39,031 bases of DNA, from NCBI GenBank assembly GCA_964624525.1, contig CAZUZX010000001.1, forward strand, positions 1 to 39,031, in the 5' to 3' direction. Of the stretch, positions 12,269 through 35,052 are shown piece by piece (the stretch's first letter is position 1; every line of letters begins with the position of its first letter). The DNA comes from an uncultured Dehalococcoidia bacterium (GTDB lineage: Bacteria > Chloroflexota > Dehalococcoidia > UBA2247 > RBG-13-53-26). The position numbers and the translations under genes are program-made. The notes beneath the pieces are model-generated. The model worked only from the letters and a program-made list of their open reading frames with translations, was not told the origin of the DNA and made no database searches.

Positions 12269-14095
12269 TTACAACCCCAATGACTTCATCTTCCTCGCCA
12301 GTGGGCGTCCCTGCCTATCCAGCTTTCTTACCTGATAATACTCATCCAGCATCTGGTCAAATTGCTCTCGGTTTACAACCTCTCCCTTACCAGGTCCCTG
12401 CCGTAGAGGTTCATTAAAATATCTAGGGGGCAAAGTATCATCTTTCCTTCCAAGTCCTTCCCTGGCATTAAACGCTCTCTCGAGGGTAAATATCCTATCA
12501 CCTATAGTCATTAGCTCAGCTTCATCAATATCAAAGCCAGTAGCCTTAGACACCATCTCTGCATACATGGGTCCCGTAATCGCCCAATTGGTGAAGTCAC
12601 ACATTGTCATAGAGTCCATGATTGCTGATACATCCTGAAAGGTCTTGAGCCAGGGACCCTTTCCCTGATAGGAGTAACGATCCACCGGTTTCGGATGCCT
12701 GAAAACCTCCGCCTTTATGATGTTACCTCTATTGTGGGAAGCTCCCATATTGGAAGTGGCATAAGCCAGTGCCATTCCCTTTGCCCCTCTGACATCATAC
12801 CCAGTAAGCTCCAAACCTTTGACGTGCATGGCAAACTTTCCCGAGCCTTTCCCTATTTTTTCAGCAGCTACCTTAACACCATCTGCTAGCAATGACCCGA
12901 TGCCTTCCTTCTTAGCTATCTTCTCCACCACTCGCAGCATTCCTTGGTGATTTCCGAACTTAAGCTCTATACCATCGGTATCTTTCTTAGTTAGCAAGCC
13001 TCTCTCATAGCACTCCATAGCAAAAGCTATTATGTTTCCTGTCGATATTGTATCCAGACCAAGCTGATTGCATAGCTGATTGGCTTTCACCAACGCACCC
13101 AGATTGTCTATCCCGCAGCTCGACCCCATGAGAGCCAAAGTTTCGAACTCCGGACCTGCTCCCTTTATTCCAGCATAGGGTTCCTCCTTCACCTCCACCA
13201 TTTGGGCACAAGCTATAGGACAACCCCAGCAAGGGTTTTTGCCTACGTTAATGGTTTTCTCTATGGTCTCGCCACTAATATTTGAGGCTCCTTCAAAGAC
13301 ACACTCCTGGAAATTCCTTGTAGGCAGTAAACCCCGCGTGTTGAACTGATTAACACTCGACGCAGTACCGAGACGGTTCATTACCCCATCGTGCCGAACG
13401 GTAGGGTGCTTGCTCATTGCTTCCCTAGCTACTTTCACAGCTTCGTCAAACGCTTTAGAGTTGGCTACCTCTATCTTTTGGTCTCCATATACCACAATTG
13501 CCTTGAGGTTCTTCGAGCCCATCACTGCACCAACACCACCCCTCCCCGCTGCTCTATGCTTGTCGTTGATGAGACAAGACCGCTTTACCAGATTCTCACC
13601 GGCTGGTCCAATACAACAGACTCTTGCCTTATCACTGGTTTCCTTCCTCAAGGCATCGTCCGTTTCTGCTGTATCCTTACCCCAAACCCTGCTGGCACTC
13701 TTTATCTCGCATTTGCCGTTGTTGATCCATAGATAAACAGGCTTAGCAGATTTCCCTTCAACAACTATTGCATCAAAGCCAGTGCACTTGAGCATGTGAC
13801 CAAATTGGCCTCCAGACAAGGTGGTTAATATAGCGCCGGTAGCTGGCGATTTGGTAATCACACAATAGAAACCAGAGGAGGGTGCTCTTGTCCCGGTAAG
13901 CGGTCCGGTGGCAAATATCATCTTGTTATCCGGGCTCAAGGGGTCAGTATTTGGTTTAAGTTCGTCATAGAGGATCTTTACTCCCAGTCCTCTCCCCCCC
14001 AGGAAATTGCGCAGAACCTCCTGTTTCGGAGTCTCTACTTTAACAGAGCCCGACGTCAGGTTCACCCTCAATAGCTTACCCATATATCCCTTCAT
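12269..14095 (-). CDS. aor: Tungsten-type aldehyde:ferredoxin oxidoreductase (AOR family)
   Basis: 608-aa ORF. N-terminus GKLLRVNLTSG, cluster motif NPCWGCPIAC plus the distal MCDF cysteine, GLDTISTG and YATSNMGASH are AOR family signatures. Confidence 0.93.
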   Translation of the reverse strand: MKGYMGKLLRVNLTSGSVKVETPKQEVLRNFLGGRGLGVKILYDELKPNTDPLSPDNKMIFATGPLTGTRAPSSGFYCVITKSPATGAILTTLSGGQFGHMLKCTGFDAIVVEGKSAKPVYLWINNGKCEIKSASRVWGKDTAETDDALRKETSDKARVCCIGPAGENLVKRSCLINDKHRAAGRGGVGAVMGSKNLKAIVVYGDQKIEVANSKAFDEAVKVAREAMSKHPTVRHDGVMNRLGTASSVNQFNTRGLLPTRNFQECVFEGASNISGETIEKTINVGKNPCWGCPIACAQMVEVKEEPYAGIKGAGPEFETLALMGSSCGIDNLGALVKANQLCNQLGLDTISTGNIIAFAMECYERGLLTKKDTDGIELKFGNHQGMLRVVEKIAKKEGIGSLLADGVKVAAEKIGKGSGKFAMHVKGLELTGYDVRGAKGMALAYATSNMGASHNRGNIIKAEVFRHPKPVDRYSYQGKGPWLKTFQDVSAIMDSMTMCDFTNWAITGPMYAEMVSKATGFDIDEAELMTIGDRIFTLERAFNAREGLGRKDDTLPPRYFNEPLRQGPGKGEVVNREQFDQMLDEYYQVRKLDRQGRPLARKMKSLGL

Positions 14096-22761: not shown

Positions 22762-23379
22762 TCATATCTGTGGCACGAATCTAGAGGTTTTGTTATTATG
22801 CTGCCTGAGCTTTGGAGATAAGACCTGATTACTATTACTGAAACACGAAGTTCCTTTTATTACTTCCTCAAGCTCTAGCCAGGGAATACCCTTACCTGTT
22901 TCAAGTCCTGCTGCTCCCGATAGATGATTATGCAGCCTCTCTAAATACTCTACGAACTGCTCCAACTCACTCTCAGAAAAAATAAACATTGCTCTTTGAG
23001 CAAGGTCGGGTGTTTTGAGCAGCTGGTGATAAATAAACTCTTTACCTTTCTCAGTAAGCTCAATCCTTTTTATTCTCTTGTCCTTACTATTCCTAGATCT
23101 TCTTATATAATTGCTCTGCTCCATACGGCTAAGCAATCCAGAGATACTTGGACTCTCCCGCTGCAGGTAATAGACTAGCTGTCGAGCTGAGAGCTGAGAG
23201 CCTAAGTAATGCAGAAATACTAAGACTAGAGCCTGCTCACAAGTAATTCCGTCCTCACTAAGTTCAGCCGAGGCAAACTTGTGTAGAGCATTTACACTCT
23301 CCTCAAGTAGCATCCATGCTTTCCGCGCCAGTTTAGATGGAGTATATCCTTTTTCTTCTAACCTAGAGAGCTGATTCAC
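22762..23379 (-). CDS. MarR-family transcriptional regulator with extended C-terminus
   Basis: 205-aa ORF with a GTG start. It has the winged-HTH pattern ...LSARQLVYYLQRESPSISGLLSRMEQSNYIRRSRNSKDKRIKRIELTEKG. About 50 extra C-terminal residues are present. Confidence 0.8.
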   Translation of the reverse strand: MNQLSRLEEKGYTPSKLARKAWMLLEESVNALHKFASAELSEDGITCEQALVLVFLHYLGSQLSARQLVYYLQRESPSISGLLSRMEQSNYIRRSRNSKDKRIKRIELTEKGKEFIYHQLLKTPDLAQRAMFIFSESELEQFVEYLERLHNHLSGAAGLETGKGIPWLELEEVIKGTSCFSNSNQVLSPKLRQHNNKTSRFVPQI

Positions 23380-25160: not shown

Positions 25161-25175
25161 AAAGGAGGGATGGCA

Positions 25176-25973
25176 ATGCCAATCACGGTGAAGGACAAGG
25201 TTATCATTATCACTGGGGCAGGGCAAGGAATAGGCAGAGCCTATGCGGAGACATTGGCAGCAGAGGGAGCAAAGGTAGTGATTGCTGAACTTAATTTTGA
25301 AAGAGCTAAAGAGGTGGAGGCAAGCATTAAAGCCAAGAGGGGTGAGGCTTTAGCTGTACGCACTGATGTGAGCAAGGCAGAAAGTACCCGTGAGATGGTA
25401 AGGAGAGCGGGAGAAAAGTATGGGCGTGTTGATGTGTTAGTTAATAATGCCGCTGCTTACTACGGGCTGAAAATGACCTTCTTCCCTGACTTAGATGAGG
25501 CTGAATTTGATAGCCAGTGGCAGGTTAATGTCAAAGGCCTTTGGCAATGCTGCAAGGCAGTGCTTCCGCAAATGATTAAACAAGGCAAGGGTAAGATTAT
25601 CAATATTGCCTCGACAGTAGCTTGGGTTGCCCCCTATGGGATGCTACACTATATAGCTTCCAAAGGGGCGGTGCTCTCCATGACCCGCGCTCTGGCTAAG
25701 GAGGTGGCTGAGCTGGGGGGACCAGACTCCCAGATAACGGTTAACACCTTGGTTCCTGGGATTACCTGGACAGACGCCACGGTCCACCTTTTTTCCGAGC
25801 AGCCGATGTTTGGCGACATGGCTTTAGAAACCCAGATCCTCAAACACAGGCTAATGCCTGAGGATCTGGTGGGGGCCATGTTATTTATGTGCTCTGATGC
25901 CTGCGATTTTATGACCGGAAGCACCGTAGTAGTGGATGGAGGCATGGCTTTCGATTTAACTTGTGCGAAATAG
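25176..25973 (+). CDS. Short-chain dehydrogenase/reductase (classical SDR)
   Basis: TGAGQGIGRAY (TGxxxGxG), NNAA and YIASKGAV (YxxxK) are present. The ATG at 25176 is 7 nt from SD aggagg; the alternative ATG at 25170 is only 1 nt from it. Confidence 0.9.
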   Translation: MPITVKDKVIIITGAGQGIGRAYAETLAAEGAKVVIAELNFERAKEVEASIKAKRGEALAVRTDVSKAESTREMVRRAGEKYGRVDVLVNNAAAYYGLKMTFFPDLDEAEFDSQWQVNVKGLWQCCKAVLPQMIKQGKGKIINIASTVAWVAPYGMLHYIASKGAVLSMTRALAKEVAELGGPDSQITVNTLVPGITWTDATVHLFSEQPMFGDMALETQILKHRLMPEDLVGAMLFMCSDACDFMTGSTVVVDGGMAFDLTCAK

Positions 25974-25993
25974 GAATTAGAAAGGAGGGTGAC

Positions 25994-26416
25994 ATGGCAG
26001 TTTTTAAGGATAGCAAGGAATTGCTGGAGTATATTGCTGGTGCCTGGGAAAGGGTCTTGCAAATTCCGGAGCTGGAGAAAGAGCTACGAAAAGCTAACGC
26101 CGTGGCTCTGCTCCGCTACACTGATCCAGAGGCTTTCTTCTATGTTGATTGCTCCAAGGACCCGAGCCGGGTTGTCTATGAACATATGGAGAGACCAGCG
26201 GAGTTGGATATGGTCATGTCGGGAGACTTTGGCAACAAGTTCATGTGTGGCAAGACAAGCATGCCGGTAGCCATGATGAAGGGAGAAATCAAGATTAAAG
26301 GACCGACTTCACTCCTATTCTCCATGCTGCCAGTAGTCAGAAAAAGCTTTGATGTCTACCGCAAGCTACTTGAAGAGAAAGGAAGGAAAGATCTGCTTGA
26401 GGCTGCCGAAAAATAG
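25994..26416 (+). CDS. SCP2 sterol/lipid-binding domain protein
   Basis: 140 aa from the ATG at 25994, with SD aaggaggg upstream. ELDMVMSGDFGNKFMCGKTSMPVAMMKGEIKIKGP fits the SCP2 fold consensus (...Gkl....Afm.Gklki.G). Confidence 0.75.
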   Translation: MAVFKDSKELLEYIAGAWERVLQIPELEKELRKANAVALLRYTDPEAFFYVDCSKDPSRVVYEHMERPAELDMVMSGDFGNKFMCGKTSMPVAMMKGEIKIKGPTSLLFSMLPVVRKSFDVYRKLLEEKGRKDLLEAAEK

Positions 26417-26451: not shown

Positions 26452-28089
26452 ATGGCAGACGCAACTTACGATGCGGTCATAGTAGGGGCAGGGACTAAAG
26501 CTCTAGTTACCGCAATGTATTTGACCAAATACGGTAGGATGGATGTAGCTCTATTTGAGGAGAGGGTTGAGGCTGGAGGGGGTTGGGGTGGCGAAGATAC
26601 CCCCGCTCCTGGATTTATCCATAATGTGCATTCCACCGACCATACTGCCTGGCATATAGGTCCAGTATATGATGACTTCCCTGATTTCGAAGAGAAAGGT
26701 GCTAAATACATCCAGCCTAAAGCTACCGGGGCATGTATCTTCCGCGAAGATCAGCGGTGTTTGATTTTTTACGGTGATAAATACGACCCCGAGGGAGAAC
26801 TTACCGCTAAAAGCATCGCTCAGTTCTCTGAGCGGGATGCAGCAATCTACAAACAGGTTGTGGACGCATTCAATGGTATCTGGCGTCCAATTATATATGA
26901 ATGGTTCTTCACTGTGGCACCTCCCCCAGAGGAATTAGATATACTTGAGAGGACTTTACACAACCCAGCAGTTGGCATAGACCCATTATGGTTGGAGATG
27001 TCGCCGCTCCAGGTAATAGAGGAGTTATTTGAAAGCCCGGAGATGAAAGCAGCCATCTTACGCCAGATGGAGTCTTTTCCCACCGTGCACCCGGATATGC
27101 CCGGGGGGTGGCTCGGGGTATGGGGCTTAATTGCCGCTGTGGGCTGGTATGGGCTCAATTTTGCCGTCGGGAGTAGTCACAGTACCGCCCACGCTGCCGT
27201 AAGGGTTATCCTGGAAAACGGAGGAAAGATCTTCACCAAGAACAAGGTGGACAAGATCTTGATAGAGAATGGTAAGGCGAGAGGCATCCGCCTCACCAAT
27301 GGCACTGAGATAGAGGCAAGAAAACTGGTGGTCAGTACTCTGAACCCTTACCAGCTCTGTTTCAATTTAATCGGTCGAGAACATCTGAGCGCCAATATAT
27401 TAAACAGAGTAAGTAACCTGCGCAGCAACCTTATTACCGTAACCTGGTACGGATGGGCTATCCATGAGCCGCCAAGGTATACCGCAGCTAAGTTTAATCC
27501 TGATATAAATGAGGTTCAATGGACCACGCTGTGCGATAGGGATTATAAAAAACAGGTAAGATTTTGGCATATGCGTTCCGCAGGTATAATGCCACCGGAT
27601 CCCTATTTAGCCACTTGGTGTCACAGCCGTTTTGACCCCACACAAGCACCCCAGGGGAAGCAGACAGCCGCCCATGAGGCTTATGTTCTCAACGCCACCG
27701 CCCTTACTGAAAGGGAGTGGCTAAAGTTCAAGAAAGAACATGCCGAGTATGCGATAAAGACCTGGCAGGAGTATGCCCCTAATATGACCTGGGATAATGT
27801 GATTGGATACGACCCTATTACCCCCTACGATATAGCCAAGAGGCTCTCAAATATGGGTCCCGAGGGTAATTGGGGGGTTATTGACCACCTCGCTTCCCAG
27901 GTGGGGAAAAACAGACCTATACCTGAGTTGGCGCAACACAGAACTCCAATTAAAAACCTTTATGCCACGGGGTCGGCTTGGCCCCCGTTTGGTATGGCTA
28001 CCACCAATCAGGGTTATACTTGTTACAAGGTTATCGCTGAAGACTTTGGGCTGAGGAAACCCTGGGAAGAAAAGAATCGCCCCTACTAA
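26452..28089 (+). CDS. FAD-dependent oxidoreductase, phytoene-dehydrogenase (CrtI/COG1233) family, paralogue A
   Basis: 545-aa ORF with an N-terminal dinucleotide fold [19 protein letters not shown]...[10 protein letters not shown] and a C-terminal [14 protein letters not shown] agaggagg is upstream. Confidence 0.82.
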
Positions 28090-28102
28090 TAAGGAGGAAA
28101 AT

Positions 28103-29725
28103 ATGCCAACGAAACATGACGTCATAATCATCGGTGCCGGTCCCAATGGGTTGACCACCGGGGCTTACTTAAGTAAAGCAGGGTTGAAGGTCTTAGTTTT
28201 AGAGAGGCGAACCGAAGGCGGTGGAGGTTTAGCTACTGAAGAGGTAACAATCCCTGGCTTTTTCCATAATACCCATTCTATCTACCATATGATGGTGGAC
28301 TATGCACCGCCCTACAAGGACTTCCAGATTGAAGAAGTCTACGGTTGCAAATACATCCGTCCTCCTCTGCAATTCGCCTTACCCCTTTCTGACGGACGCT
28401 GCCTCTGTCTCTATACCGATGTGGACAAGACCTGTAATTCCATAGCTCAATTTTCCCAGCGGGACGCCACATCCTATCGCAACTTTTATCATAAACTTAA
28501 CAGATATATGGAGGCATTCCTTGGTCCAGCTACTTACGTGCCACCCCTTGGTCTCCTGGAGCAGGTAGCCAAGTTGGAGAAAACTGAGATCGGCAAGGAG
28601 ATAAATGCCTATACAGAGAAAAGCCCAAGAGAGATTGTTGATGAATTCTTTGAAAACAAGCACGTCAGGGCAATGATGTTATATATTGCCTGCCACTGGG
28701 GGCTGGAGCACGATGTTGAGGGGGTAGGGTATCTCGCTCTCGTCAATCTAAATAGATCAACCAATTATCAGTTGTGTGCTGGCGGCTCCCACATGCTGGC
28801 TCAGGCACTAATGAAGGCAGTGATAGAAAACGGGGGGATGATCTGGGGTAGTCAGCAGATAAAGCGGATTGTGCTTCAAGATGGCGCCGCTACAGGGGTA
28901 GAGCTAGATGATGGCACAATAATTGAAGCTGATAAGGGAATAGTCAGCAGTATTGACCCCTATCAGACTTTCTTCAAGCTTGTAGGAGAAGGTAATCTAG
29001 AGAAGGACTTTGTGAAAAAACTCAAAACATGGAAGTGGGAGAAATGGAGTCTATTTGTTTCCCACCTGGCACTAGAGGAGCCACCTAACTTCTCCGCTGC
29101 TGCCGCCAACCCCGATGTCAATAAAGCCTTTGTATATATCATCGGGTGTGAGACTGAGGAAGAACTCATAAAACATTGGGAAGCAATAGGACGGGGAGAA
29201 CTGACAAGCGCCGGCTTCAACTGCTGCTTCCCAAGTATTCATGACCCCAGCCAAGCACCGCTCGGAAGGCACACCGGTCTTATTTCCCAGATGGTCCCTT
29301 ACCAACTGAAGGAGGGAGCAGACAAGTGGTACCGCATAAAGTTCAAAGAGGAGCATGGGGAGAGATGCTTAACCACCCTCAGGAAATATGCTCCAAACCT
29401 GACGGCAGATAAGATATTATGGAGTTCTTTCTGCACTCCTATGGATATAGAAAATAAGTTCACTGATATGGTGGAAGGCTCTATCAAGCAAGGGCAGTAC
29501 CACCCCCTCCAGATGGGCTACAACAGACCCAACGACGAATGCTCTCAGAATATAACCCCTATTAAAAGGCTCTATCTTTGTGGTTCGAGCTGCCACCCTG
29601 GTGGTTTAATAACCTTTGGAGCGGGATATGTGGCAGCTAACCGCATCGCTGAGGAGCTAGGAGTTAAAAAATGGTGGACAGAACCCGAGATTATCACCAA
29701 AGCCAAGGAGGTAGGTCTATTATGA
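28103..29725 (+). CDS. FAD-dependent oxidoreductase, phytoene-dehydrogenase (CrtI/COG1233) family, paralogue B
   Basis: 540-aa ORF with [19 protein letters not shown]...[11 protein letters not shown] and a C-terminal [14 protein letters not shown] taaggagg is upstream. It starts 13 nt after paralogue A. Confidence 0.85.
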
Positions 29726-29967
29726 GAGTGAGATCAACCGGGTTGGGCAAAACGGAGCTGATATGTGGTATCGAAGGTATAAGCCGAAAGGAGGATTTTC
29801 TTATTATGTCGGTCCGCTCTACGGAGCCAGTAGCTTGGCATATCAGGGTGGCTCTAGAGTACAAGGACCTACTAAAGCTTATCGTAAGCTGTTTGAAAGG
29901 CTCGGTTATGTGGTTCGTTCTCTCCGGCTTCACTATCAGAAGTCCCAAGGTGCCGGAGAAGTACTAA
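29722..29967 (+). CDS. Hypothetical 81-aa protein, translationally coupled to paralogue B
   Basis: The ATG at 29722 overlaps the TGA at 29723-29725 (ATGA), and SD aaggaggt lies at 29705-29712. I recognise no family. An internal echo is present: MRVRSTG... / MSVRSTE... Confidence 0.5.
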
Positions 29968-30044
29968 AACTCACTAGATGATAAGGGAAGGGTTTGATTT
30001 GAAAGCAATAGAATTTTGTTGAAGTCCCATCAAGGAGGTGTGAA

Positions 30045-31472
30045 ATGGCATTTAAAGACAATCGGGAATTTATAGTCGCTTTAGAGAAGACGGGAGACAT
30101 AGTTCGGGTGAGGAGAGAGGTGGATTGGGACTTAGAGGTAGGAGCAATTATTCGCCGCCTCAATGAGACAGAGGGTCCAGCTGCTTTTTTCCAGAAGATC
30201 AAGAACTATCCCGGACATACCATCTTTGGGACACCACTGGCTACCTTCAGACGGATGGCTGTTGCCCTAGGGCTCCCTGCCGATACTCCCAGGGCTGTGA
30301 TCCAGCAACACTACGAGAGTCTCATAGAACAGCCGATAAAACCTATTATTGTCAAAGATGCCCCTTGCAAAGAGAACATCATCAAAGGCAAGAACATAGA
30401 CCTTTATGAGTTCCCTGCTCCTATGGTCCATGAGGGAGACGGGGGGCGCTATATTGGCACTTGGCATGTGGTGGTGGGCAAGGACCCTGATAGCGAGTGG
30501 GTCAATTGGGGGATGTATCGCCTACAGATTCTGGGGCGAAGAGCTATGGGGGGTGTAATCGGTCCTTGGGCAAATCAGTTCCAGCTCTTTTATGGGAAAT
30601 ATGTACCCCGAGGTCAGAATATGCCCTTTGCCATAGCCATCGGGGCGGATCCCGTTAGCTCTTTTCTTGCCGCTTCTTATCTACCCCCGGGAGTAAGTGA
30701 GGCGGATTACGCCGGGGGCTTACGTCAGGAGCCAGTGGAGTTGATTAAATGCGAAACTAACGACCTGTATGTGCCCGCCTATGCTGAGATAATACTCGAA
30801 GGGGAAATCCTGAAGGATGTCACGGTAAACGAGGGACCCTTTGGAGAATATGTCGGCTACCGGGCTGGTCCCCGCACTGCTCGACCGGTTTATCAAGTAA
30901 ATTGCATCACCCACCGCAACAATCCTATTCTTACTGTATCGAATATGGGACTTCCTATTGATGACTGTGCTCTGGGGATGTCTATAAGCTTAGCCTATCA
31001 AATAAAAAAGCGCTTACGTGATTTTAGGATACCCTTCATTGATGTTAATGTGGTGCCAGAGGGAATTACGTTTCTGGCGGTAGTAAGCACCATACCCTTC
31101 TATAGTGGTATAGCCAATCAGATCGCCCATATAGCTAGCCAAACTATAGAACCACATATGGTGATAGTAGTGAATAACGATGTAGACGTCTTCGATATCC
31201 GTCAAGTATTACATGCCCTGGCTACCAAGTGTCATCCGGTGAGAGGAATAAGGGCGTTCGAAAGCGAGATGGGGTTACCTTTCTGCCCTTACTTAAAACC
31301 AGAAGAGAGGCGTATCATGAAAGGGGCTCGTGTAGTATTTGATTGCACCTGGCCCCTTGATTGGCCAAAGGAAACAGCTATCCCACCTCGCTCTTCCTTC
31401 AATGAGATGTATCCTCAAGAAATTAAGGATAAGGTTCTCGCTAATTGGAAGAAATATGGATTTAAATCCTAA
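30045..31472 (+). CDS. UbiD-family prenylated-FMN-dependent (de)carboxylase
   Basis: 475-aa ORF. FKDNREFIVALEKTGDIVRV, VNWGMYRLQ and NEGPFGEYVGYR are UbiD family signatures. SD aaggaggt is upstream. Confidence 0.9.
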   Translation: MAFKDNREFIVALEKTGDIVRVRREVDWDLEVGAIIRRLNETEGPAAFFQKIKNYPGHTIFGTPLATFRRMAVALGLPADTPRAVIQQHYESLIEQPIKPIIVKDAPCKENIIKGKNIDLYEFPAPMVHEGDGGRYIGTWHVVVGKDPDSEWVNWGMYRLQILGRRAMGGVIGPWANQFQLFYGKYVPRGQNMPFAIAIGADPVSSFLAASYLPPGVSEADYAGGLRQEPVELIKCETNDLYVPAYAEIILEGEILKDVTVNEGPFGEYVGYRAGPRTARPVYQVNCITHRNNPILTVSNMGLPIDDCALGMSISLAYQIKKRLRDFRIPFIDVNVVPEGITFLAVVSTIPFYSGIANQIAHIASQTIEPHMVIVVNNDVDVFDIRQVLHALATKCHPVRGIRAFESEMGLPFCPYLKPEERRIMKGARVVFDCTWPLDWPKETAIPPRSSFNEMYPQEIKDKVLANWKKYGFKS

Positions 31473-31499: not shown

Positions 31500-31781
31500 A
31501 TGGCAAAGAAAAAAGAATACGATACTTTTGTAGCTAGCCTAGAGGAACTCACCCAAGGGCAGGAAACAGACATCAGCATCAGAGATTTAACTCCCGGTAG
31601 GCGGAAGTATGAATGGAAATATGTGAAAGCGATAGTATCTAGTTCGCCAGACAAATTGAAGGGTGGAGATGTTCTCTGGCTCAGGTTTAATGACACTGGG
31701 TTTCGACACCCTCAACCTTGGGCAATAAAGGTTAAGGAGATACTGGGCGAGTATGTTTCCCAAGAAAGAGTAGCTTATTAA
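31500..31781 (+). CDS. Hypothetical 93-aa protein downstream of UbiD
   Basis: SD caggagga precedes the ATG, which is 27 nt after the UbiD stop on the same strand. I recognise no family. Confidence 0.55.
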   Translation: MAKKKEYDTFVASLEELTQGQETDISIRDLTPGRRKYEWKYVKAIVSSSPDKLKGGDVLWLRFNDTGFRHPQPWAIKVKEILGEYVSQERVAY

Positions 31782-32372: not shown

Positions 32373-33647
32373 ATGAAAGTGCAAAGATGCAAAGGTAGTC
32401 GAGATCTGCTTCCTGAGGATATAGCAAGGTTTCGATATGTCGAGCAAGTTTTTAGGTCTTGTTGCCAGAGGTGGGGTTATAAGGAGATAAGAACACCCAC
32501 CTTAGAGTATCTCCATTTGTTTACTTCCGCGGGAACTCTTACCCCTAGTATGCTTAATAAGGTGTATTCTTTCCTTGATTGGGATGGCTGGAGCGGAGAG
32601 AGAGTAGTATTGAGACCCGAGGGCACTATCCCAGCAGCTCGACTTTACATTGAAAATTTCAAACCGTCCGGTCTAGCTAAACTATTCTATGTAGAAAATA
32701 TCTTTAGTTTCGAAGAGACCGGAAAGGAATCGAGGGAACGTTGGCAGTGTGGAGCTGAGTTAATAGGAAGTAATAAACCGTCTGCAGATGTGGAGTTGGT
32801 CTTGCTTGCTTTGGAAACTTTGGAAAGAATGGGTATCAAGGAAGTAAAGTTATGCCTCTCCCACGCTGGGCTGATAAAAGCTCTGCTCCGAGAATCAGGA
32901 TTGACACCATCAAAAGAAATCCAAATATTTGACCGAATTCTGGATGGAGACACAGAAATAGCAAGGGAAATTATAAAGGATAATCCCCAGCTTCGGGACT
33001 CTTTACCTTTACTTTTTGAACTCAGGGGGAAATCGCCTGGTTTCCTTGAGAATCTAAAGGTTTCCCTGACAAAAGCCTCACCTAATCTTAAGCTAAGCAT
33101 GGAAAACTTTATAACTATTGCTCAACTGCTGACTGATATGGGCTGTAAATATCAGATTGATATTGCTTCAGGCAAGGGCTTCGAGTATTATACGGGGATT
33201 ATTTTCCAAGTTTATCTTGGAAGCCAGAAAGTAGGAGGAGGGGGAAGATATGACGATCTAATTCCTCTCCTAGGAGGGAGTGATACTCCTGCCTCTGGTT
33301 TCGCTCTTTACATTGACCAGCTTATGAGCCTCCTCCCTTCCGGGGATTCGGGAGAGGATGCTTCAAAAATGATTCTAGTTCGAAACGAGATCGATGGAGT
33401 CAAGGGATGGAAGCTATCCTTTGAAATTGTTAGCCTACTACGGGAAGCTGGATATATAGTGGAGCTTGACCAAGGCTATAAAGAGCTAACCGAGCATCAA
33501 TGGATTCTCAAAATCCAAGAAGAAGGAGAAAGGCTCTTCTTCCTTTTGACTCATCAAGCTAGTGGTAAAAGCCTAGAGGCAGATTCACCAACCGGGATTT
33601 TGAGCATATTGCAGGGAACAAATGCAAATAAAGCTGGCTCTTCCTAA
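32373..33647 (+). CDS. hisZ: ATP phosphoribosyltransferase regulatory subunit HisZ (full-length HisRS paralogue)
   Basis: 424-aa ORF. KGSRDLLPED, LRPEGT, KGFEYYTG and GGGGRYDDL are HisRS-like. The motif 2 and motif 3 arginines appear replaced (NIFSFEE, ALYIDQL). It overlaps hisG by 26 nt. Confidence 0.8.
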   Translation: MKVQRCKGSRDLLPEDIARFRYVEQVFRSCCQRWGYKEIRTPTLEYLHLFTSAGTLTPSMLNKVYSFLDWDGWSGERVVLRPEGTIPAARLYIENFKPSGLAKLFYVENIFSFEETGKESRERWQCGAELIGSNKPSADVELVLLALETLERMGIKEVKLCLSHAGLIKALLRESGLTPSKEIQIFDRILDGDTEIAREIIKDNPQLRDSLPLLFELRGKSPGFLENLKVSLTKASPNLKLSMENFITIAQLLTDMGCKYQIDIASGKGFEYYTGIIFQVYLGSQKVGGGGRYDDLIPLLGGSDTPASGFALYIDQLMSLLPSGDSGEDASKMILVRNEIDGVKGWKLSFEIVSLLREAGYIVELDQGYKELTEHQWILKIQEEGERLFFLLTHQASGKSLEADSPTGILSILQGTNANKAGSS

Positions 33648-35052
33648 GGGACGTTTGCTTCCTTACACAAATATTTTATTGCAAAAGGCAAGGCTGGAAC
33701 TCAGCGACTACGAGGAGCAATCTCGCTCCTATCGACCTCGATGCAATGGTCTTCCTAACCTCTTTCTAAAGATGTTTCATGAAAAGGATATACCTATACA
33801 AGTAGCAGTAGGAAACTACGACTTAGGGATCTGTGGGCTGGATTGGGTTGAAGAGCTTTTAGTTAAATATCCTAGCAGTGCCTTGGTCAAGGTGCATGAC
33901 CTGGGGTATGGCAAAAGCAATCTATATATAGCTATTGGTAGATCGGCTGGTATATCATCGTTAGAAGAGCTAAAGGCTAAGGCGGAGATAATACGTATAG
34001 CTAGCGAATACCCCAATCTAGCTGAATCCTTCGCCTTAAACATGAGGTTGAGGCGATTTAAGATTTTCCCACTTTGGGGGGCGGCTGAGGTTTACCCCCC
34101 AGAAAGTGCTGATCTCGCCTTGGTCTCTCATGCTTCTCCCGATAGTCTTTTCAAGCATGGGCTAGTTCCTCTGACTTCGATTCTTCAGTCGAGTGCTTTT
34201 CTAGTTGCCCACCGGCATAGCTGGGAATATAAGGATATGAGCTTCTTGCTCCATTGCTTTCATGCTGTAGAGGGTATAGAGAAGGAGACAGTAAATAAAG
34301 AGTTGGAGACTAGAGGCAGTATGGAGAAGCAGGGATTCAGCCCCCAGTTTCCGGCTGCTGGTTTGTGGCTTGCTCTTCCTAATGGACACCAACAGCAACC
34401 TACCCTTGAATTCTTAAACCAGGTTGGTCTCAAAGTCTGGGATTACCCTTCGGAGTCTCGCCGCCCCAATATCAGCCTTGATGGTGTTAGTGTGAAAGTG
34501 ATTCGACCTCAAGATATGCCTCTTCAGATTGCCAATAAGAATTTTGATCTAGCCATCACCGGTCAAGACTGGCTTTATGATCACCTTTGCCGTTTCCCCT
34601 CCAGCCCAGTGAAGGAACTTCTCAAATTGGGATTCGGTAAGGTGCGGATTGTAGCTGTAGTGAGCCAGGAATTGCCAGTAAGTAGTATTCAGAACTTAAG
34701 GGAACTATTGAGGGAAGGCAAACTCTCTACTCTCAGGATAGCCTCAGAATACATTAATATTGCCGACAGGTATGCTCGAGATAACCACCTTAGCCCTTAT
34801 AGATTGATCCCCACATGGGGGGCAAGTGAGGTCTTCCTACCAGAAGATGCTGACTTGCTTATCGAGAATGTTCAGACAGGGCAAACTGTGGCCCAGCATA
34901 ATCTCAAGATTATCGACACCATTTTCGAATCATCAGCTTGTCTTATTGGCAATGTACATACCTCTCCGCTTAAGCAACAGAAGATAGATTATGTTGTCCA
35001 AGTTCTCCGCCAGGCAGTAGTGACTAATGATAAAACTTTAAAGAGGGGGTAG
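33622..35052 (+). CDS. hisG: ATP phosphoribosyltransferase, tandem-duplicated short-form HisG fusion
   Basis: 476-aa ORF made of two HisG-like halves: aa 1 to about 215 (IKLALPKGRL...) and about 245 to 476 (LWLALPNGHQ...). The halves align with each other along their length. Only the second half carries the DLLIENVQTGQTV PRPP-loop motif. Confidence 0.85.
   Translation: MQIKLALPKGRLLPYTNILLQKARLELSDYEEQSRSYRPRCNGLPNLFLKMFHEKDIPIQVAVGNYDLGICGLDWVEELLVKYPSSALVKVHDLGYGKSNLYIAIGRSAGISSLEELKAKAEIIRIASEYPNLAESFALNMRLRRFKIFPLWGAAEVYPPESADLALVSHASPDSLFKHGLVPLTSILQSSAFLVAHRHSWEYKDMSFLLHCFHAVEGIEKETVNKELETRGSMEKQGFSPQFPAAGLWLALPNGHQQQPTLEFLNQVGLKVWDYPSESRRPNISLDGVSVKVIRPQDMPLQIANKNFDLAITGQDWLYDHLCRFPSSPVKELLKLGFGKVRIVAVVSQELPVSSIQNLRELLREGKLSTLRIASEYINIADRYARDNHLSPYRLIPTWGASEVFLPEDADLLIENVQTGQTVAQHNLKIIDTIFESSACLIGNVHTSPLKQQKIDYVVQVLRQAVVTNDKTLKRG

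Follow-up and report, generated by a model that had tools for sequence, protein, structure and literature searches.

Results

The window analysed here, i.e. the whole stretch of 39,031 nucleotides from position 1 of contig CAZUZX010000001.1 (GenBank assembly GCA_964624525.1) of an uncultured Dehalococcoidia bacterium, contains two adjacent genes for flavoproteins of the COG1233 family, termed A and B in the following. We propose that their products are probably the two subunits of a single flavin dehydrogenase, heteromeric and oxygen-independent, from the family that comprises limonene dehydrogenase (CtmAB) and sterol delta-24-desaturase (delta-24-SD). The pair is organized as follows:

26452–28089, + strand: open reading frame (ORF) A, putative subunit A (A1-type partner subunit); 545 amino acids (aa), ATG start, Rossmann motif GAGTKA (GxGxxA), putative covalent-flavin site His60 in PGFIHNVHS
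28090–28102, + strand: A–B spacer of 13 nucleotides (nt) with the Shine-Dalgarno sequence AAGGAGG for B
28103–29725, + strand: ORF B, putative subunit B (B1-type); 540 aa, ATG start, motif GAGPNGL, putative covalent-flavin site His58 in PGFFHNTHS

Both ORFs are present with the lengths and the spacing reported by a first-pass annotation of this DNA, all peptides quoted there were found (including residues 9–21 of A and 8–20 of B), and so was the difference between the dinucleotide-fold motifs, GxGxxA in A and GxGxxG in B. The letters between the stop codon of A and the start codon of B (TAA TAAGGAGGAAAAT ATG) provide B with a strong Shine-Dalgarno site of its own; another such site precedes A, and no terminator-like site was seen between the two genes. 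A promoter and terminator scan yielded counts no different from those in shuffled sequence.

The first-pass annotation had estimated the similarity of A and B by eye at about one third, asking for a pairwise alignment; BLASTP now gives 32% identity across 540 columns (E 6e-87), so that the two proteins are clearly homologous and diverged long ago. Each protein is nearer to proteins of other phyla than to its neighbor: B shares 57–65% identity with proteins from Dehalococcoidia, Binatia, Planctomycetota and Deltaproteobacteria, and A shares 40–51% with the partners of those B-like proteins.

Phylogeny of the two subunits

Trees were computed with FastTree (196 sequences) and with IQ-TREE under a mixture model (68 sequences) from family members of about 80 loci, six proteins of the window's own genome and, as characterised references, the alpha and beta sequences of delta-24-SD taken from the supplement of PMC11061730; seven non-paired COG1233 proteins of relatives served as the outgroup. 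The ingroup falls into three clades. Clade B (support 100/99) unites B1, which includes window B, with B2, which includes delta-24-SD beta; clade A1 (100/98) holds window A and the A genes on two further contigs of the same genome (C7 and C63); and clade alpha (95/99) holds the genes paired with B2, along with delta-24-SD alpha. Hence, the window genes are not lineage-specific duplicates of each other, and the earlier view of them as old paralogues, not products of a recent duplication, agrees with both the 32% identity and their placement in separate, well-supported clades. Nor do they group together as duplicates within a single CrtI/CrtD clade, the outcome that had been named as speaking against a CtmAB-type pair.

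Window B shares 36.6% identity with delta-24-SD beta (E 1e-109) and, by its position in the tree, is orthologous to the beta/CtmB-type subunit, CtmB itself being outside the comparison. For A the picture is different. Delta-24-SD alpha shows 29.8% identity to window B and 26.6% to window A; IQ-TREE separates A1 plus alpha from the other sequences by a branch with a support of just 59/51, and FastTree places A1 beside B with a support of 77. The expectation that each ORF would group with a different Ctm subunit was thus borne out for B, which joins beta, while A forms part of a clade of its own.

Pairing and co-inheritance

Across the roughly 80 loci, which come from many phyla, B1 genes adjoin A1 partners only (38 loci) and B2 genes adjoin alpha partners only (38 loci), and cross pairs number 0 among the 76 pairs scored. 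B genes that lack a scored partner lie mostly at contig ends or beside a truncated partner ORF. The arrangement of the pairs is as follows:

B1–A1 pairs: partner upstream at 29 loci (median gap 36 nt), downstream at 9 loci (median gap 434 nt)
B2–alpha pairs: partner upstream at 35 loci (median gap 12 nt), downstream at 3 loci (median gap 42 nt)

The distance matrices of the partners correlate with r 0.86 for 41 A1/B1 pairs and r 0.89 for 36 alpha/B2 pairs, and 0 of 2000 permutations reached a value as high as either. At the level of sequence, these correlated distances show co-inheritance of the pair as a unit, also through paralogous duplications, and are not proof of physical contact. The pattern indicates that two subunit systems, A1/B1 and alpha/B2, separated anciently within the family and that each has strictly matched subunits.

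The window's own genome (1.19 Mb in 137 contigs, 86.8% complete) carries three A–B pairs, located on contigs C1 (the window), C63 and C7. B-type genes occur in all 12 genomes of the same family that were searched, with one to six copies each, and in none of the eight more distant relatives searched. The closest public loci belong to metagenome-assembled genomes (MAGs) of Dehalococcoidia and other Chloroflexota, with B identities of up to 65%; further loci stem from Binatia, Syntrophorhabdus, other Deltaproteobacteria, Planctomycetota, Actinomycetota and Acidobacteriota.

It is conceivable that A and B are instead two separate homo-oligomeric enzymes, which act on related substrates in successive or parallel reactions and have nothing more in common than their operon. 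Both genes are complete and independently translated, each from its own Shine-Dalgarno site, A and B genes are unequal in number in some arrays, and homodimeric sub-complexes have been suggested within the alpha4beta4 assembly of delta-24-SD (PMC11061730). We nevertheless regard this explanation as quite improbable, given the type-specific pairing in 76 of 76 scored pairs from many phyla, the tight correlation of partner divergence, the occurrence in one genome of three such pairs, which were duplicated as whole units, and the two-subunit nature of both characterised relatives (on purification, PMC11061730; by genetics, PMC4109377).

The unequal arrays are found in some Dehalococcoidia loci, where two or three A1 genes accompany one B1 gene in the orders A-A-B, A-A-A-B or A-B-A (L025:4594–9632; L031:2831–9629; L257 and L258, i.e. 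G007:C105 and G006:C69). The extra A1 genes hint, on the basis of gene content, that A subunits could be exchangeable for one B subunit. In a MAG of Thermodesulfobacteriota (L036:6470–11213), an outgroup-type COG1233 protein without the flavin-site His is followed by a B1 gene and then an A1 gene; such a protein may be a third component in some systems.

Flavin-attachment site, nucleotide-binding motif and fold

Delta-24-SD is an alpha4beta4 enzyme with flavin mononucleotide bound covalently to His57 of alpha and His58 of beta, and the flavin consensus G-F-[LR]-x-[NS]-[TL]-H-A is common to delta-24-SD, CtmA and CtmB (PMC11061730). We tested at the sequence level for the family consensus G-F-x-x-[NS]-x-H-A, which contains the flavin-bearing His of both subunits. 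The N-terminal motif is present in A (GFIHNVHS) and in B (GFFHNTHS), with Ser in place of the final Ala of the consensus, and His60 of A and His58 of B align with His57/His58 of delta-24-SD. The residues in this column are:

B1: His in 51 of 51
B2: His in 47 of 47
alpha: His in 37 of 37
A1: His in 29, Cys in 22
Outgroup (non-paired COG1233 proteins): Gly in 6 of 7

Window A has His at this position, and the A genes on C63 and C7 of the same genome have Cys. Both residues are known as covalent flavin ligands, e.g. in the 8-alpha-S-cysteinyl flavin adenine dinucleotide (FAD) of monoamine oxidase. Since the A1 column is always occupied by one or the other (51 of 51), the whole A1 clade looks flavinylated.

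The third Gly of the GxGxxG motif is variable in A1, with Gly in 28 sequences, Ala in 19 and occasionally Ser or Thr (Ala, Ser and Thr together about 40%); the B proteins always show GxGPNGL. Judged from this alignment, GxGxxA is a clade-level variant of A1 and not a sign of decay of the window A gene, which also retains the E-x-GG ribose motif. AlphaFold2 models built from clade alignments are CrtI-like and reached a pLDDT of 92.2 for A and 92.1 for B, with a pTM of 0.92 for both. The best solved matches of the A model are 4rep (E 5e-25, TMq 0.72), 4dgk and 3ka7, with amine oxidases coming after; the copy of the Protein Data Bank (PDB) that we searched holds no structure of a Ctm-type enzyme.

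These data bear on the possibility that A and B form a heteromer of which only B is catalytic, with A being structural, relaying electrons, or having lost its redox function. A evolves faster than B (mean pairwise distance 0.59 versus 0.45), has Ala for the third Gly of GxGxxG and does not keep the C-terminal PGG motif of B; for delta-24-SD, too, the authors consider that one subunit type may just relay electrons or be structural (PMC11061730). We find such a division of labor unlikely, given that His60 is kept in A, that the corresponding A1 column consists of His or Cys throughout while the non-paired outgroup proteins have Gly, that the GxGxxA/S/T variant is clade-wide and not specific to window A, that the fold of A is predicted with a pLDDT of 92, and that both subunits of delta-24-SD were found to be flavinylated (PMC11061730). 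The related suggestion in the first-pass annotation, namely that the GxGxxA copy binds flavin differently or is a non-redox partner, is not supported: A retains His60, E-x-GG and a confidently predicted CrtI-like fold, and the variant is frequent in A1.

Relation to carotenoid desaturases

Automatic annotation would make A and B biosynthetic desaturases or ketolases of carotenoids or other isoprenoids (CrtI, CrtD or CrtO type). Indeed, CrtO (NF045689) is the best NCBIfam model for both, the best solved folds are those of the carotenoid desaturases 4rep and 4dgk, and homologues are publicly named "phytoene desaturase family protein". Yet, every score lies far under the curated cut-off: with CrtO, A reaches 161.7 and B 220.3 bits (cut-off 1000), and with crtI_fam (TIGR02734) they reach 41.0 and 83.3 bits (cut-off 238.1); Pfam assigns generic flavoprotein domains only. 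No match to SQS_PSY (PF00494, phytoene/squalene synthase) was found in the genome, where, at 86.8% completeness, absence is not proven, and every COG1233 gene of 20 relatives likewise falls short of the crtI_fam cut-off. The two proteins are hence very unlikely to take part in carotenoid synthesis. The gene context is moreover catabolic, and the putative covalent-flavin His is present in A and B while the outgroup COG1233 proteins are without it, so that we give the annotation-based explanation almost no credence; the first-pass annotation had likewise argued against a carotenoid desaturase. What the pair shares with CrtI-type desaturases (PDB 4dgk, 4rep) is the overall fold and the FAD-type Rossmann motif, and both would oxidize beside existing double bonds; the identity, in contrast, is merely 14–16%, CrtI is a single-subunit enzyme with non-covalent FAD, and genes of the carotenoid pathway were not found in the genome as far as it is complete.

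Gene context

The following genes flank the pair:

22762–23379, − strand: divergent MarR-family regulator; 205 aa
23691–25160, + strand: NAD(P)-dependent aldehyde dehydrogenase (ALDH); 489 aa, candidate for an aldehyde-to-acid step
25170–25973, + strand: short-chain dehydrogenase (SDR); 267 aa, candidate alcohol dehydrogenase acting after A/B
25961–26416, + strand: SCP2-like small protein; 151 aa, marginal PF02036 match (22.0 bits, cut-off 21.3)
30045–31472, + strand: UbiD-family (de)carboxylase; 475 aa, 320 nt downstream of B
31500–31781, + strand: phenylphosphate carboxylase gamma-like protein (Phenyl_P_gamma, PF09662); 93 aa, 37 bits (cut-off 25)

The 5' end of the SCP2-like gene overlaps the SDR gene, and its product is a possible carrier for a hydrophobic substrate. 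The best model for the UbiD-family protein is phenylphosphate carboxylase alpha, with 478 bits and thus under the cut-off of 564.6; by its position only, the gene may be linked to the A–B pair. The gap between B and the UbiD gene (29726–30044) contains an open frame of about 80 aa (29725–29967) without Pfam match, which could be a gene or untranslated region.

The order ALDH-SDR-A-B recurs on contig C63 and so occurs twice in the genome. On C7, a MarR gene flanks the A–B pair, and the array continues with genes for a protein of 145 aa, a methyltransferase of the URO-D type, a corrinoid protein and a flavoprotein of the VAO/PCMH type. Elsewhere the genome holds several URO-D and B12 sets, further UbiD paralogues (contigs C131, C29 and C94), another gamma-like gene and one that is UbiX-like. 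On C10 (11293–15389, − strand), the second Phenyl_P_gamma-like gene, 47% identical to that of the window, clusters with the UbiX-like flavoprotein gene and a gene of the 145-aa family. Multiple genes for URO-D-type methyltransferases and corrinoid proteins (O-demethylase-like), plus a VAO/PCMH-family flavoprotein, are located on C7 (129–3631, − strand), C59 and C17; in a genome of about 1.2 Mb, these sets suggest the use of methoxylated aromatics.

A family of 140–145-aa proteins without Pfam match and with 43–71% mutual identity adjoins two of the three A–B pairs as well as URO-D/corrinoid sets. The 145-aa and 140-aa proteins showed no significant similarity to the SCP2-like gene of the window. 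The members are:

C7:3864–4301, − strand
C63:350–772, + strand
C59:3867–4289
C10:11293–11715

In a locus of Syntrophorhabdales, an A1/B1 pair has a Phenol_MetA_deg gene on one side and, on the other, a series of genes for ARMT1 phosphatase, SDR and a split PEP-dikinase. In Thauera aromatica, phenol is metabolized anaerobically via phenylphosphate synthase and phenylphosphate carboxylase. Enzyme kinds of anaerobic phenol metabolism are thus present in two independent A1/B1 contexts. The idea that the whole operon is conserved was dropped, as the ALDH, UbiD and SCP2 genes are not kept beside the pair in other genomes.

Elsewhere in the genome, at least four pairs of ETF genes encode candidate electron acceptors. 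About 10 kb upstream in the window (12269–14095, − strand), a tungsten-type aldehyde:ferredoxin oxidoreductase gene (AFOR_N, AFOR_C) adjoins citrate-synthase-like, MaoC and enoyl-CoA hydratase genes; its product is a possible alternative aldehyde-oxidizing enzyme. Farther downstream (33622–35052), a HisG of 476 aa, preceded by hisZ, comprises two HisG-domain stretches (tandem fusion).

Discussion

To our knowledge, limonene dehydrogenase and sterol delta-24-desaturase are the only family members studied so far. Both come from denitrifying Betaproteobacteria and act on isoprenoids. With delta-24-SD of Sterolibacterium denitrificans (WP_067170564 / WP_067170561), the window pair has in common the two adjacent COG1233 paralogues of about 55–63 kDa, the N-terminal G-F-x-x-N-x-H motif in both subunits, the close relation between B and beta with 36.6% identity in one clade at 100/99, and, by analogy, the proposed oxygen-independent chemistry at activated C-H bonds. 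It differs in that window A lies outside the alpha clade (26.6% identity), making the window pair A1/B1 and delta-24-SD alpha/B2, and in its neighbors, which are ALDH, SDR, SCP2-like and UbiD genes rather than sterol side-chain genes.

CtmAB of Castellaniella defragrans 65Phen (CDM25290 / CDM25289; PMC4109377), known here from published descriptions, likewise consists of two divergent COG1233 flavoproteins from adjacent genes, which are essential for growth on limonene; their mutual identity is 27% (PMC4109377), compared with 32% for the window pair. The same flavin-binding consensus is reported for them (PMC11061730), a MarR regulator lies within the island, and an alcohol and an aldehyde dehydrogenase (GeoA and GeoB, which convert perillyl alcohol to perillic acid; PMC4109377) come next in a pathway that leads from methyl via alcohol and aldehyde to acid. 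In contrast to CtmAB, the window locus has no CtmE/CtmF-like ferredoxin or reductase, and the host is a Dehalococcoidia bacterium with a small genome instead of a denitrifier.

To which of the two systems CtmAB belongs can be approached via its published relatives. Alpha is 34% identical to CtmA and beta 38% identical to CtmB (PMC11061730), and the best database match in 2014 of both CtmB (41%) and CtmA (30%) was protein WP_006422074 of NaphS2 (PMC4109377). In our DNA-pattern scan, which found at least 120 loci, NaphS2 is among the matches listed and Castellaniella is not; none of the 120 closest homologues listed bears a Ctm name. The NaphS2 contig encodes a 545-aa protein of B1 type with 58% identity to window B, which we take to be WP_006422074 on its length and organism alone; it is preceded by an A1 gene, of whose product 212 residues align with window A at 40% identity. 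Delta-24-SD alpha, like CtmA according to the 2014 matches, is nearer to B-type than to A1-type proteins, and the published identity between CtmA and alpha (34%) exceeds the 25–29% between delta-24-SD alpha and most other members of its clade. By this comparison, CtmA is probably of the alpha type and not of the A1 type, which would leave the A1/B1 system without a characterised member.

Our reading of A and B as probable subunits of one heteromeric enzyme is based on the observed homology, the clade membership of B, the strict pairing, the co-inheritance, motif retention, predicted fold and gene context. Of the CtmAB-type heteromer proposed in the first-pass annotation, the ancient and strictly co-inherited pair (76 of 76 type-matched, r 0.86) and the affiliation of B with beta hold up, while a link of A to alpha or CtmA does not follow from the data. 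Several points weigh against our reading. Complex formation is deduced from evidence at the level of genes and sequences only; A is not demonstrably orthologous to CtmA/alpha, with the deep branching differing between IQ-TREE and FastTree; and the tree position of CtmA and CtmB is deduced from published identities. Arrays with two or three A1 genes per B1 gene (L025, L031, L257 and L258) misfit a simple 1:1 picture, and relatives do not keep the ALDH, UbiD and gamma genes adjacent to the pair. Finally, limonene dehydrogenase has been argued to depend on an acceptor of high potential (PMC12583861), a requirement that suits a strict anaerobe poorly, and no ferredoxin or reductase like CtmE/CtmF is encoded in the operon.

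As to how the proposed heteromer would work, we infer covalent flavinylation, the reaction type, the substrate and the link to UbiD from the features described above. Each subunit would adopt a CrtI-like fold with the flavin most likely attached covalently to the N-terminal His (His60 in A, His58 in B). The complex would abstract hydride or hydrogen from an activated allylic or benzylic C-H in a hydrophobic substrate and pass the electrons to an acceptor, and this would yield either an alcohol, through the addition of water known from CtmAB, or, as with delta-24-SD, an additional double bond. An alcohol would then be taken on to the acid by the SDR and the aldehyde dehydrogenase encoded upstream, with the SCP2-like protein holding the substrate and MarR regulating the operon. 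The context of MarR, ALDH, SDR, SCP2-like and phenylphosphate carboxylase alpha- and gamma-like genes suggests a methyl-to-carboxyl oxidation of a phenolic or similar substrate. Because two A1/B1 contexts hold enzymes of the anaerobic-phenol type, we tentatively favor a phenolic or alkyl-aromatic substrate over an isoprenoid, albeit short of calling it probable; since the neighbors are not conserved in relatives of the same family, this substrate inference is weak. More doubtful still, the A1/B1 lineage could comprise hydroxylases of a class not yet characterised, which would attack benzylic or allylic positions of alkylphenols or lignin-derived aromatics without oxygen, as a functional CrtI-fold counterpart of p-cresol methylhydroxylase with two covalent flavins (on His or Cys in A).

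In summary, the window brings to light the partition of this family into A1/B1 and alpha/B2, the His/Cys alternation at the flavin-attachment site of the A1 subunit, and phenylphosphate carboxylase-like neighbors of the pair. It also corrects the routine annotation as phytoene desaturase, which is attached to thousands of proteins. With the placement of CtmA being deduced from published identities, the window pair probably belongs to a system without a characterised member, one that is present in multiple copies in a Dehalococcoidia family with genomes of 1.2–2.8 Mb. If the substrate is alkyl-aromatic, the pair would represent a new oxygen-free activation of methyl groups in strictly anoxic habitats. 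And if the hydroxylase hypothesis is true, it would provide small-genome Dehalococcoidia, Syntrophorhabdus and other strict anaerobes with a route from methyl-aromatics to hydroxybenzoates, coupled to (de)carboxylation of the phenylphosphate type.

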